Source: Candidatus Gastranaerophilales bacterium
GTDB taxonomy: Bacteria > Cyanobacteriota > Vampirovibrionia > Gastranaerophilales > Gastranaerophilaceae
Assembly: GCA_944325025.1 (NCBI GenBank)
Contig: CALUYN010000005.1
Location: 14,478 to 78,477 of the forward strand
Direction: 5' to 3'
DNA: 64,000 bases
Shown: piece after piece, positions 18,601 through 30,509 of the stretch
Layout of the letters: every line of letters begins with the position of its first letter
Position numbering within the stretch: the first letter of the stretch is position 1
Notes under the pieces: model-generated
Told to the model about the DNA's origin: nothing
What the model saw: the letters and a program-made list of their open reading frames with translations, nothing else
Database searches by the model: none
Translations under genes and position numbers: made by a program

Positions 18601-19262
18601 AATTTTTGTTTTAAAGCCTCTTCATAATATTTTTTCTCATTTTTTTCTATTTCAAAGAGTTGTTCTTTTATATTTTCTTTGGCGGCATTGAGTTCATCAT
18701 CAGTTGCATTTTCGCTTACGTAAACAGGTTTTCCGTATATGTTTAAAATATTGCAATCTCCAAGCGGAGTTTTCATTTTGTCCCAGGATGGCAGTGTGAT
18801 AAAAGTTTTCTGCGGTGAATACCAGTGAACAGGAATTATTGGCGCCCCTGACATTTGAGCGAGTTTAACAGCACCGTTTTTGACTTTATGTAATGGTCCG
18901 TGGGGACCGTCCACCATTATTGAAACACATTCACCGCTTTTTAATTTAGTCAGCATTTGCATTGTTGATTCAACTGCACCTTTTTTGCCTGCGGAGCCTC
19001 TTACGACATTAAACCCCCATTTTTCGCAGACGCCTGCGACAATTTCACCGTCTATTGAGGTGCTTATTAAAACGCTTAGATGTTCTCTATCTCTTATTCC
19101 GTGAATTAAAAATTGATTTTTATGCCATAGCGCATATATACAAGGCGAAATCCCTGGATTGTTAAATTCTTTAATATGTGTGAATATTTCCTGAAATCTT
19201 AGAATTTTATAAGTAATATGCGCAAGAGTTTTGACATTTTTGCTATTAATTATTCTAACCAT
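18582..19262 (-). CDS. DUF374-type lysophospholipid acyltransferase family protein
   Basis: ALWH, ISTSIDGE, VVRGS, MVDGPHGP motifs. Confidence 0.8.
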   Translation of the reverse strand: MVRIINSKNVKTLAHITYKILRFQEIFTHIKEFNNPGISPCIYALWHKNQFLIHGIRDREHLSVLISTSIDGEIVAGVCEKWGFNVVRGSAGKKGAVESTMQMLTKLKSGECVSIMVDGPHGPLHKVKNGAVKLAQMSGAPIIPVHWYSPQKTFITLPSWDKMKTPLGDCNILNIYGKPVYVSENATDDELNAAKENIKEQLFEIEKNEKKYYEEALKQKLWDKKK

Positions 19263-19286
19263 GCCTCAATTATATCATAAATAGCC

Positions 19287-19314
19287 TTGATGTTTTTATA
19301 TATTTTGTTATAAT
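19287..19314 (+). promoter_or_regulatory. Putative sigma70 promoter of pilin-like locus A
   Basis: TTGATG-16 bp-TATAAT, 40 nt upstream of the ATG at 19354. Confidence 0.4.
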
Positions 19315-19353
19315 AAAGATTATTGATTTAATGCATAAAATAAAGGAGTAAGT

Positions 19354-20669
19354 ATGAATAATAATAAATTAACAAGATACGAGAGCTTCGGGGGGGGGGC
19401 ACTTTAGGCTCCGCCGTAGGCAAAGACGCAAAGAGGCATAGATGCAAAGCCAATTTAAAGATACTAGGGTACTATGTCACTAGGGCACTAAGACGTATCG
19501 TAACAGTTTTCCCTCTCTCGGGAGAGGGATTAAGGGAGAGGGTAAATTTAGAAGGCAGAAAGATAAGAAGATATGAGGGTAAGCTATTAACGGTAACTAA
19601 CCCCTTCCTTGCCTTATTAGGTAAGGATAAGAGGAAGTGTAACAACCAATACCCACCCCAACCCTATCTTACTCGCTTTGCGATAAACTTTCCTCTCACA
19701 AACGATACTCAATCGTTTGTTCGGCAGAGTGGCTCGGCCTTTCACCCTCTGCAAAGCGAGCGCTCTCAAATCAGGGAGGGTGCTACATGTCATTGCGAGG
19801 AGGGCTTAAGCCCGACGTCGCAATCGCAAGATAGTGAGATGCTGAAACAAGTTCAGCATGACGAGTTTAGTTTTCTGAAACGCACTTATCGTCTTAAAAA
19901 TAAACTCTCTTCACGTTTCACTCTTCACTCTTTACTTAAAAAGAAAGCTGCCTTCACCCTCGCCGAAGGTGCTACGCACGTAGCCCACTCTCACAATATC
20001 CGTCGAGTTGCATTTACCTTGGCGGAGGTTCTCATCACCCTCGGTATAATCGGTGTTGTTGCTGCCATGACAATTCCGACTCTAATAAACAAGTATCAGA
20101 TGAAAGTATTTGAAACAGCGTTTAAAAAACAGTATTCAGCTGTTCAGTCTGCAATAGATATGCAGTTTTTAAATAACGGGGTATCTGATTGTTATATGTA
20201 CTGGCAGAGAGATCTTAATGCTTACGGAGCCGAAACATCTCAATGTTATGAATTATATTCAGAAATTATTAAATATATGAATTTATTCAAAATAGATTAT
20301 TCTATTAGAGATAGTTACGCCAGAAAAGCTCAAGTACAGGCAAACGGCGGGAAATTTGTCAATAGCTCTGTAGCTTACGATTCTTATATAAACACAAGTT
20401 GGGCTTATGCTTCAAATAACGGAGCAGTTTTTTTAATCACTATGTTTTCTCCTGTTGTAATAATAGATGTAAACGGAGAAAAAGGTCCTAATAAATGGGG
20501 CTATGATGTATTCTTTCTTGTATTGTCCAATCATGACGGCAATTTGAACAGAATTCTCTTGACGGATGAATTAGCAACTATTGTAGAAAAAGGCGGTCGT
20601 TTACCGAGAAATATTTTGATAAACAAGGAAAAAACAGAGGACAGTGATTTTACAATATTCTGGAATTAG
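19354..20669 (+). CDS. Pilin-like protein (class III signal), frameshifted at a G10 tract; putative phase-variable gene A
   Basis: SD AAAGGAG + ATG 19354; G10 at 19390-19399; the current frame stops at 19405-19407. One more G gives a continuous 438-aa ORF that includes the track ORF 19839-20669 with AFTLAEVLITLGIIGVVAAMTIP. Confidence 0.8.
19390..19399 (+). repeat. G10 homopolymer tract
   Basis: Ten consecutive G inside the start of the reading frame. Confidence 0.9.
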
Positions 20670-20791
20670 TCTTTGAAAATAACTATTGATATGGCTTAAC
20701 TTTTATTATAAAACTTAAGCCCTTTACTTGCACAAATTCTTTTTTGAAGTATGATTTATATAGATGTACTAATTAAAATAAGGATAAAAAG

Positions 20792-29341: not shown

Positions 29342-30441
29342 TTACCATGGATAGTCGTCTTTAATTTGCCAACCGTCAAGCATAATAAGTTTAGTACAGT
29401 ACAAATTTTCATATTTTTCCCCGTTTCCGGACATACAGTATGATTTTAATCTATCTCTGTCTGTATCAGGCCCCAAAGCCTCCAATTTCATTTTATTTAC
29501 TCCATCAAACTGAAATGCAAAAAAGTCTCTGCCTAAAATATTGGGCCCCTTTTTCCCATTTATGTCAACAAAAATAAGAGGATAAGTGTAAACAGATGTA
29601 CTGCCATTATATAACATAAATAAAGTGACTCCATTTGTTAATACTAATATATATGAAGGAGTAAACATATACTCTCTTCCATCTCTGGTCTTTGGATATT
29701 TATACCCTGCATATTCTATATTACTTGTCAATATTGGTTTTGTTAGCAGCTTTAGATAAGGAATAAGATATGTGTCAGCAAAAGATTTAATTAATTCTTT
29801 CGGCTGAGTCGGGTCATTCTGGTTCGGGGTTGAAGCTGCCATCCCCCAACTTGAAATATCTCCATAATCTGTCTGAGCATGTACTATCGCCTGTGATAAA
29901 ATGCTATATGTTTGTTCTAATCTTTTTGCCGCAATTTGTTTTTGGTACTTTACACTCATTCCGGGAATAGTAAGAGCTGCAACTACACCGATTATGCCGA
30001 AGGTGATAAGAACTTCCGCCAAGGTAAATGCGGCTTTACGAATATTGTGAGAGTGAGCTACGTGCGTAGCACCTTCCGCCAAGGTAAATGCCGCTAGTTT
30101 TTTTAGTGAAGAGTGAAGGGTGAAACGTGAAGAGAGTTTATTTTTAAGGCGATAAGACGATAAGACGTTAGGACGATAAGTCAGTTTCAGAGAATAAATG
30201 TCATCCTGAACGTCGGATTGACATCTGTATTTCAGCATCTCACTATCTTGTGATTGCGGATCAGCTGCGCTGTCCGCAATGACGAAAACAATAGAACCCT
30301 CAGGATTACATGACAAATACTGACATGAATTGTTTAACATGTCAGTGTGCGTAGTACACCCGCAATAACAATTTTTTAAATGTGTCGGGTCAAGCGGCAC
30401 GCTTGGGGGGGGGCAATTCTCAGCTTTTTATCTCTTTCCAT
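29342..30441 (-). CDS. Pilin-like protein, frameshifted at a C9 tract; putative phase-variable gene B
   Basis: SD AAAGGAG (30455-30449) + ATG 30441; C9 on the coding strand (G at 30405-30413); the current frame stops at 30378-30376. One more C joins it to the 352-aa track ORF (366 aa total) with AFTLAEVLITFGIIGVVAALTIP. Confidence 0.8.
30405..30413 (-). repeat. C9 homopolymer tract (coding strand)
   Basis: Nine consecutive G on the plus strand, beginning at codon 10 after the ATG. Confidence 0.9.
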
Positions 30442-30509
30442 AATTAAACTCCTTTATGTTTATCTACTTTTTATTATTGTTATTATTTTTTGTATTTTTG
30501 TCAAGAGTT

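Follow-up and report, generated by a model that had tools for sequence, protein, structure and literature searches.

Several kinds of bacterial system come close to the gene described here. In Escherichia coli and in Neisseria (pilE/pilS), palindromes of the repetitive extragenic palindrome (REP) type and short conserved motifs form extragenic mosaics, the bacterial interspersed mosaic elements (BIMEs) and the neisserial intergenic mosaic elements (NIMEs, or Correia elements), respectively. In the poly-G/C contingency genes of Campylobacter, Neisseria and Haemophilus, a homopolymer after the start codon sets the frame of a gene for a surface structure. Our subject, locus A, is a type IV pilin-like gene cassette in a 64,000-nt stretch of DNA (the window) from Candidatus Gastranaerophilales, an uncultured gut bacterium known from a 1.76-Mb, 35% GC metagenome-assembled genome. 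Between a homopolymer and the prepilin cleavage site, the gene carries 204 codons of REP-like palindromes and 7–8-bp tandem repeats. We read this stretch as the coding N-terminal leader of a type IV pilin-like precursor, used as a frame-filtered harbour for REP-like DNA, and put the probability of this reading at roughly 0.75.

In-frame palindromic repeats in open reading frames (ORFs) are already known (PMC10969869, PMC3733652). The Rickettsia palindromic elements (RPEs) are of this kind (Ogata et al. 2000, as reviewed in PMC10969869), as are intragenic REPs that make in-frame fusions (PMC3733652). The CGTC-tagged REP super-family, with an 8–9-bp stem, a 4–5-nt loop and an unpaired CGTC at one end, is without a dedicated transposase and sometimes lies inside genes (Di Nocera, De Gregorio & Rocco 2013, PMC3733652); Melainabacteria and Gastranaerophilales are not listed for it (PMC3733652).

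Like RPEs, intragenic miniature inverted-repeat transposable elements and intragenic REPs, the modules studied here are small palindromes in ORFs that keep the frame, add a weakly constrained peptide and also occur between genes. Unlike RPEs, which are single insertions scattered over unrelated housekeeping proteins, they form multi-module arrays of up to about 840 nt, concentrated in one region (a cleavable prepilin leader) of one family of about 37 genes and coupled to a putative homopolymer frame switch. The likeness to RPEs appears to be one of analogy, not of family membership, and the organism is unrelated. One leader family resembles the CGTC-tagged REPs in its 8-bp stem, 4–6-nt loop, one-sided (C/T)GTC and lack of an evident dedicated transposase, but its tag is YGTC, and most other leader modules (CCCTC...GAGGG hairpins, 7/8-mer blocks) are of another type. 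As in BIMEs and NIMEs, palindromes are combined into mosaics; where such arrays lie outside leaders, a GTAG REP of the type linked to REP-associated tyrosine transposases (RAYTs) often caps them, and a variable pilin family accompanies the arrays, as it does in Neisseria. The leader mosaic would be translated, however, whereas BIMEs and NIMEs lie outside genes. With poly-G/C contingency genes the family shares a homopolymer just past the start and many loci per genome, but up to 280 repeat-derived codons separate the putative switch from the functional protein, and the tract is tightly peaked at 10, usually one base short of in-frame. The searchable literature yielded no paper on pilins or phase variation in Gastranaerophilales or Melainabacteria, nor any on long prepilin leaders of such a kind; within it, repeat arrays concentrated in the cleavable prepilin leaders of a large, putatively switchable family are apparently new.

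Results

The leader is open in the pilin frame

The leader and pilin of locus A share frame 0, which has no stop from 19368, just before the G-run, to the pilin stop (20669); the earlier note on this DNA had claimed that the leader keeps frame, and it does. The head ATG lies in frame 1. At the assembled tract length, G10, the head is out of frame and its ORF terminates at TAG 19405–19407; G11 or G8 would bring it into frame. The parts of the cassette are as follows.

19281–20725, forward: whole cassette of promoter, head, leader, pilin and terminator-like hairpin, 1445 nt
19287–19314, forward: promoter-like site TTGATG-16-TATAAT with a TG extension, the sole forward-strand promoter-like match from the upstream gene to the pilin body
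19343–19348, forward: Shine–Dalgarno sequence AAGGAG
19354–19356, forward: head start codon ATG, with eleven further codons before G10
19390–19399, forward: G10 homopolymer, 12 codons on from the ATG
19401–20012, forward: N-terminal extension (leader), 612 nt or 204 codons, from the G-run to the cleavage site
20010–20015, forward: prepilin cleavage motif A↓FTLAEV
20013–20669, forward: mature type IV pilin-like protein, a FTLAEVLITLGIIGVVAAM helix and a variable globular part

Type IV pilins are recognized by (G/A)↓F-T-L-x-E followed by a hydrophobic helix of approximately 20 residues. Locus A has this class III signal peptide motif, RRVA↓FTLAEVLITLGIIGVVAAM at 20001–20069, in which the hydrophobic helix follows the cleavage motif. 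The pilin N terminus matches GspG/PilA/ComGC models, and its match to N_methyl (PF07963; E = 0.005) stays below the cut-off. Machinery to process and assemble such a protein is encoded in the genome, with a prepilin peptidase (Peptidase_A24 at C1:35420–35809; C numbers denote contigs) and three T2SSE ATPases of the PilB/PilT type, all above cut-off. Type IV pilin leaders are characteristically short, with about 5–30 residues before the cleavage site; this one has 204, and across paralogs the range is 7–280. A Pfam search of the leader peptide gave nothing meaningful, and an Rfam scan of 19250–20100 returned one chance-level match only.

The frame of the leaders is kept by selection. The 3903 codons of 37 intact leaders are free of stops when read in the pilin frame, while the two other forward frames contain 235 and 351; long leaders from other species (12 leaders, 1713 codons) again have none, versus 109 and 152. 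The random stops that the earlier note had named, for paralog leaders, as the sign of an untranslated region were not seen in these leaders. Each of the 24 leaders that reach 200 nt is open, in the pilin frame only, whereas among 19 arrays of the same modules and minimum length outside leaders just 2 of 114 frames are open. The open frame starts within a few codons of the homopolymer.

These counts bear directly on whether the region might instead be an untranslated, structured 5′ leader RNA, with the pilin starting at the internal ATG 19839. Existing gene callers do place the start there, the head ORF is out of frame at the assembled G10, and the RNA fold of the leader region is significantly stable (z = −4.1 versus shuffles). 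Yet 146 more codons are open upstream of 19839, reaching exactly to the G-run, and the same is found in 37 paralogs and in other species; many such long ORFs in public data are likewise called from arbitrary internal starts. The ATG itself lies inside the hairpin stem ATGCTGAA without a Shine–Dalgarno sequence, no forward-strand promoter-like site is near it, and arrays of the same modules outside leaders are full of stops. The frame statistics largely refute an untranslated leader, which we regard as very unlikely.

The sequence of the leader peptide is under weak constraint. A shared block keeps its reading frame in 333 of 334 cases, and synonymous and non-synonymous single-difference codons number 863 and 1358 in leaders versus 4341 and 834 in mature pilins. 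The leaders carry a net positive charge (median +8) and are free of membrane-helix-like windows. Such basic, helix-free peptides would suit a cytoplasmic, later-removed extension, judging from known prepilin topology.

Leaders differ by whole modules and by multiples of three

The earlier note had also proposed testing whether indels favour multiples of three. Where shared blocks are collinear, the differences in length between them are divisible by three in 156 of 188 leader comparisons (83%) and in 18 of 50 comparisons of non-leader arrays (36%). Since arrays outside leaders have no such bias, a length divisible by three is no inherent property of the modules, and it is in leaders that the bias is imposed. 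The result rests on these block-to-block differences and not on the small gaps inside BLAST alignments, where the multiple-of-three bias is weak (75/256) and which are probably alignment noise or compensated pairs.

Gain and loss of modules can be followed at orthologous loci. Proteins P0011 and P0074, from two different studies, are the same pilin (94% identity), encoded at loci L110 and L112. The two loci have promoter, head and G10 in common, and two clean indels, each consisting of one palindromic module, set their leaders apart: the 51-nt indel is the hairpin module equivalent to 19507–19546, the 87-nt indel the nested palindrome equivalent to 19666–19768. With the stop-free leaders and the closed arrays elsewhere, these indels bear out the proposal that leaders gather palindromic modules under selection for an open frame. 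Within 560–1240, locus L110 also has two copies of a 27-nt CGTC-type REP that face opposite ways, roughly 400 nt from each other, and each stays open in frame; a pair of this kind might in principle allow the segment between them to invert.

Over 741 nt of locus A, ten independent assemblies agree in every position, save one G10-to-G9 change and one single-nucleotide polymorphism. An assembly artefact is ruled out, as these assemblies come from different assemblers and agree.

Module composition of leader A

The palindromes and 7–8-bp tandem repeats listed in the earlier note are all present where it had placed them, and they exceed chance: perfect inverted repeats with arms of 8 bp or more number four in the 612 nt, whereas 2000 shuffles averaged 0.5 (P about 0.0025). 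Arms pair as TCCCTCTC/GAGAGGGA (19510–19517/19522–19529), CTCGCTTTGC/GCAAAGCGAG (19672–19681/19751–19760, enclosing ACAAACGAT/ATCGTTTGT at 19698–19706/19712–19720), ATTGCGA/TCGCAAT (19792–19798/19818–19824) and ATGCTGAA/TTCAGCAT (19839–19846/19852–19859). Tandem 8-mers similar to ACTAGGGC occupy 19463–19490 and tandem 7-mers of CTCTTCA 19907–19936; a further 8-mer array, GCAAAGAC at 19420–19449, was missing from the earlier list. The leader divides into the modules below, and locus B, also in the window, is given for comparison.

19401–19452, forward: head-proximal block (TLGSAVGKDAKRHRCKA) with 8-mer array GCAAAGAC ×3.8, about 15–24 genome copies
19453–19494, forward: 42-nt module of four 8-mers, ACTAGGGT/ACTATGTC/ACTAGGGC/ACTAAGAC
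19507–19546, forward: hairpin module TCCCTCTC-TCGG-GAGAGGGA, then a third GGGAGAGGG, about 35 genome copies
19547–19665, forward: two shared blocks including a degenerate hairpin of the CCTTCCCT-N4-AGGGAAGG family, about 8–10 copies
19666–19768, forward: nested palindromic element, outer CTCGCTTTGC/GCAAAGCGAG around ACAAACGAT/ATCGTTTGT
19769–19833, forward: AGGGAGGG hairpin arm, then GTC-tagged hairpin ATTGCGA...TCGCAAT with inner palindrome GGGCTTAAGCCC
19836–19864, forward: REP of the CGTC-tagged type, 8-bp stem ATGCTGAA/TTCAGCAT, 5-nt loop, GACG tag 3′
19885–19947, forward: one CTTATCGT 8-mer unit and 7-mer array CTCTTCA ×4.3, encoding SSRFTLHSLLKK
19949–20012, forward: decoy AFTLAE, then palindrome GCTACG-CA-CGTAGC (GATHVA) and HSHNIRRVA, up to the −1 alanine
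29964–30447, reverse: locus B, with head (ATG at about 30444, C9 at 30405–30413), 125-codon mosaic leader and pilin N terminus

Several of these modules are present in some relatives and absent from others. The 42-nt module occurs in three of six aligned paralog leaders and is missing from the other three, a 14-codon indel. The nested element at 19666–19768 makes the leader 33 codons (99 nt) longer than in paralogs where the sequence is PPQPSLIREGA; versions in other genomes are without the inner ACAAACGAT hairpin, which points to palindromes nested in palindromes. The encoded peptide would contain segments such as FPLSGEGLRERV and MLKQVQHD.

At the 3′ end of the leader, AFTLAE occurs twice in 19949–20030, 60 nt apart with the palindrome GCTACG-CA-CGTAGC between, and the hydrophobic helix follows the second copy only. 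This double-AFTLAE block is found at 17 genome loci, 10 of them in leaders.

Locus B has the same later modules as locus A; a block of 193 nt is 85% identical between the two, and another of 29 nt is 97% identical. As the earlier note had described, it carries four 8-mers (GATAAGAC GATAAGAC GTTAGGAC GATAAGTC, 30151–30182) where locus A has one unit, a 24-nt difference. The note had suggested that repeat-number changes could be a second switch, which may be pictured as a slipped-strand mechanism in which copy number toggles the frame. A unit of 7 or 8 nt is not a multiple of three, and loci A and B stand three 8-mer units apart, as that idea would have it. But the units are imperfect (75–81% matches), the ten assemblies contain no copy-number change, the paralog variants TYRLKNK, TYRPNVLSSYRLKNK and TYRLIVLSLKNK are all in frame, and the 7-mer block is a conserved module with about 40 genome copies, usually directly 5′ of the cleavage site. 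Simple-sequence contingency loci have near-perfect units of varying copy number, and the 7/8-mer arrays do not. The suggestion is therefore unsupported, and we find a second switch scarcely credible; the 7–8-bp repeats are parts of modules, and the homopolymer is the only length-variable site seen.

Module families across the genome

Leader modules match 241 regions (18.6 kb) outside leaders, and each hairpin family has the majority of its copies there. Leaders hold 37 arrays, compared with about 44 other arrays that reach at least 120 nt. The family of the 19836–19864 module comprises 115 perfect 8-bp hairpins, mostly with 5-nt loops, of which 109 bear a one-sided (C/T)GTC tag (YGTC, not strictly CGTC); in the locus A copy the tag is seen as GACG 3′ of the stem. 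Judged by stem, loop, copy number and one-sided tag, the family fits the CGTC-tagged REP super-family (PMC3733652). Under a looser pattern, the CYGAA hairpin family has 153 loci; the stem position beside its fixed core covaries (G-C, T-A, C-G), being paired in 84% of cases versus 34% with shuffled partners. The CATTGCG...CGCAAT family, represented at 19769–19833, has 46 loci, 11 of them in leaders.

The earlier note had proposed looking for a RAYT or GIY-YIG gene flanked by the same palindromes. Two RAYT ORFs match NF047646, the REP-associated tyrosine transposase model, at 152 and 128 bits (cut-off 80).

C13:11354–11894: first RAYT gene
C7:73364–73729: second RAYT gene

The C13 gene has the flanking REPs in inverted orientation that define a REPtron, in the form of GTAG-tagged GGTGGGA...TCCCACC hairpins. 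None of 16 GTAG copies falls in a leader, nor does any of the four copies of the second RAYT's hairpin; of the 13 GTAG REPs that do not flank the RAYT gene, nine abut the ends of leader-type module arrays outside leaders. The enzymes are thus present in the genome, and one GIY-YIG palindrome family does reach a leader, as described next, but neither RAYT nor GIY-YIG is tied to the leader modules.

On either side of a 103-aa GIY-YIG ORF (C27:3095–3600) lies a copy, roughly 95 nt long, of a palindrome compounded of TCCTGAGCG...CGAAGGA and GCGATTCTTCGG...CAGAATGAC. The second of these hairpin families (GCGATTCTTCGG...CAGAATGAC) also occurs in one pilin leader and two non-leader arrays.

The pilin-like family and its homopolymers

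The genome holds 47 pilin-like paralogs with the cleavage motif, 35 of which have a G or C run of 8–12 upstream. Nearly all heads follow one design: a Shine–Dalgarno sequence, ATG, about 10 codons and then TTC-G10-CAC. Leaders draw on a limited set of blocks that vary in order, number and orientation; module-free leaders of 7–31 aa occur within the same family. The design recurs in about 35 other Gastranaerophilales species, where the tract was found in 41 retrieved pilin loci, 39 of them open to the tract.

Runs of at least eight G or C are exactly 10 long in 44 of 60 cases across the genome. The flanks are nearly always TTC-G10-CA, whichever way the run lies with respect to its gene. In pilin heads, here and in the other species, G10 is almost always one base short of in-frame, and most heads at G10 have a conserved stop two codons past the tract. 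Tract lengths of 8–12 among paralogs and species include both ON and OFF states; locus A has G10 in nine of ten independent assemblies and G9 in one, both OFF.

Undercalling of homopolymer length is an unlikely source of this pattern. Long non-pilin ORFs, among them an ATPase-like ORF of about 1000 aa (582 aa before and 417 aa after the tract) and glycosyltransferases, have G10 or C10 in frame, which argues against undercalling in the assembly. The comparison suggests that pilins are set one step from the modal tract length.

A second class of larger proteins (680–800 aa), with the N terminus FTLAEMMVVMLILSII, has the same poly-G head (C32:10548–10826, C16, C14 and C19). In two cases these genes have the same mosaic leader modules too.

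Genomic context and possible exchange among paralogs

Six congeneric genomes have the two genes that flank the cassette, but nothing of the cassette between them. The flanks are an acyltransferase-like (DUF374) gene and a trigger factor gene, separated in the congeners by a short spacer of 34 nt in the closest (G017). The cassette showed neither a target duplication nor a terminal repeat. A search of the sister species for an orthologue of locus A, intended for a filled-versus-empty comparison of the leader, showed that these species lack the gene altogether. At the closest homologue (L017), 75% identical and not syntenic, the leader is short.

Each segment of locus A has a different closest relative: for the head it lies on C16 (93%), for 19401–19665 on C35 (90%; for the blocks at 19547–19665, a leader on that contig), for 19866–19948 on C7 (93%), for the GATHVA block on C1 (97%) and for the pilin body on C20 (71%). 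Exchange between paralogs at the leaders is therefore plausible from such resemblances, and would agree with the earlier suggestion that the repeats serve as recombination handles, although no recombinant junctions were demonstrated and differing best hits could also come from independent insertions.

A rival explanation is that selection favours the mosaic for some role it plays, beyond simply allowing it. As recombination handles among about 40 paralogs, the repeats would let heads, leader blocks and pilin bodies be reshuffled to give antigenic or functional variation; as untranslated hairpin RNA in the OFF state, they would silence internal initiation or promote transcript termination or decay. 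The patchwork of relatives fits the first version. The large share of arrays that sit in leaders, the insertion of the whole cassette relative to the sister species and the conserved stop after G10 in most heads likewise speak for a selected function. Module-free leaders in the family and the short leader of the 75%-identical homologue, however, make the mosaic dispensable, and orthologues differ freely in module content. We consider a selected function of the mosaic doubtful.

Discussion

We favour a leader that is coding and tolerant, in which repeats settle subject to the reading frame. Translation would start at the head ATG (19354) behind its Shine–Dalgarno sequence, and the ribosome would cross the G-run, which would set the reading frame, then read about 204 codons before reaching A↓FTLAEV. 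The leader would stay on the cytoplasmic side and be removed by the prepilin peptidase; its amino-acid sequence would then hardly matter, so that for small palindromic repeats it would behave like intergenic DNA. The settlers are CGTC/GTC-tagged REP hairpins, hairpins of the CCCTC...GAGGG type and short tandem-repeat blocks; these modules are gained and lost, come to lie within each other and may pass between paralogs. Only insertions or losses that change the length by a multiple of three and leave the pilin frame free of stops would survive, because others would kill the gene in the ON state, and the outcome would be a BIME-like mosaic readable from end to end.

Several points weigh against this account. 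Loci A and B are both out of frame in the assembly (G10 and C9), and only OFF forms of locus A occur among the ten assemblies. To our knowledge, leaders of 60–280 aa far exceed any known class III signal peptide. Codon position 3 changes somewhat more often than positions 1 and 2 (0.145 versus 0.095), so the leader peptide may not be fully neutral. No target-site duplication or dedicated transposase was identified for the leader modules, which are taken as mobile from their presence/absence patterns. Two of 39 long leaders are broken. Finally, while the data show the anatomy, the open frames, the bias to multiples of three, module gain and loss at orthologous loci and the relaxed constraint on amino acids, we infer translation from the head, cleavage of the leader and the mode of module movement.

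The two broken leaders lie on C9 (26622–27370 in minus-strand coordinates) and C7 (30556–31347). In the former the frame changes once, at an A-rich run, and the remainder is open over 235 codons; the latter has several breaks and is pseudogene-like.

A bolder view would make the leader a dedicated translated platform, combining signal peptides of up to about 280 residues with recombination handles and an OFF-state hairpin silencer; relatedly, the G-tract, kept exactly one base short of in-frame across species, could be read by programmed slippage, with every gene expressed at a low set level. We hold this view as tentative, unlikely but not far-fetched.

For repeat biology, the pilin-like leaders show where repeat DNA, whether selfish or structural, can find a home within genes, namely in a stretch of protein that would be cut away. 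They also amount to a natural experiment on selection for frame only, with the same modules open in leaders and closed outside. If the leaders are made, they would extend the size range of class III signal peptides about tenfold, and prepilin peptidase and membrane insertion would have to cope with very long leaders. Because gene callers use arbitrary internal starts, the putative switch and the leader are invisible in databases. The findings also add detail to the very large, putatively switchable repertoire of pilin-like genes in this common, uncultured gut lineage.

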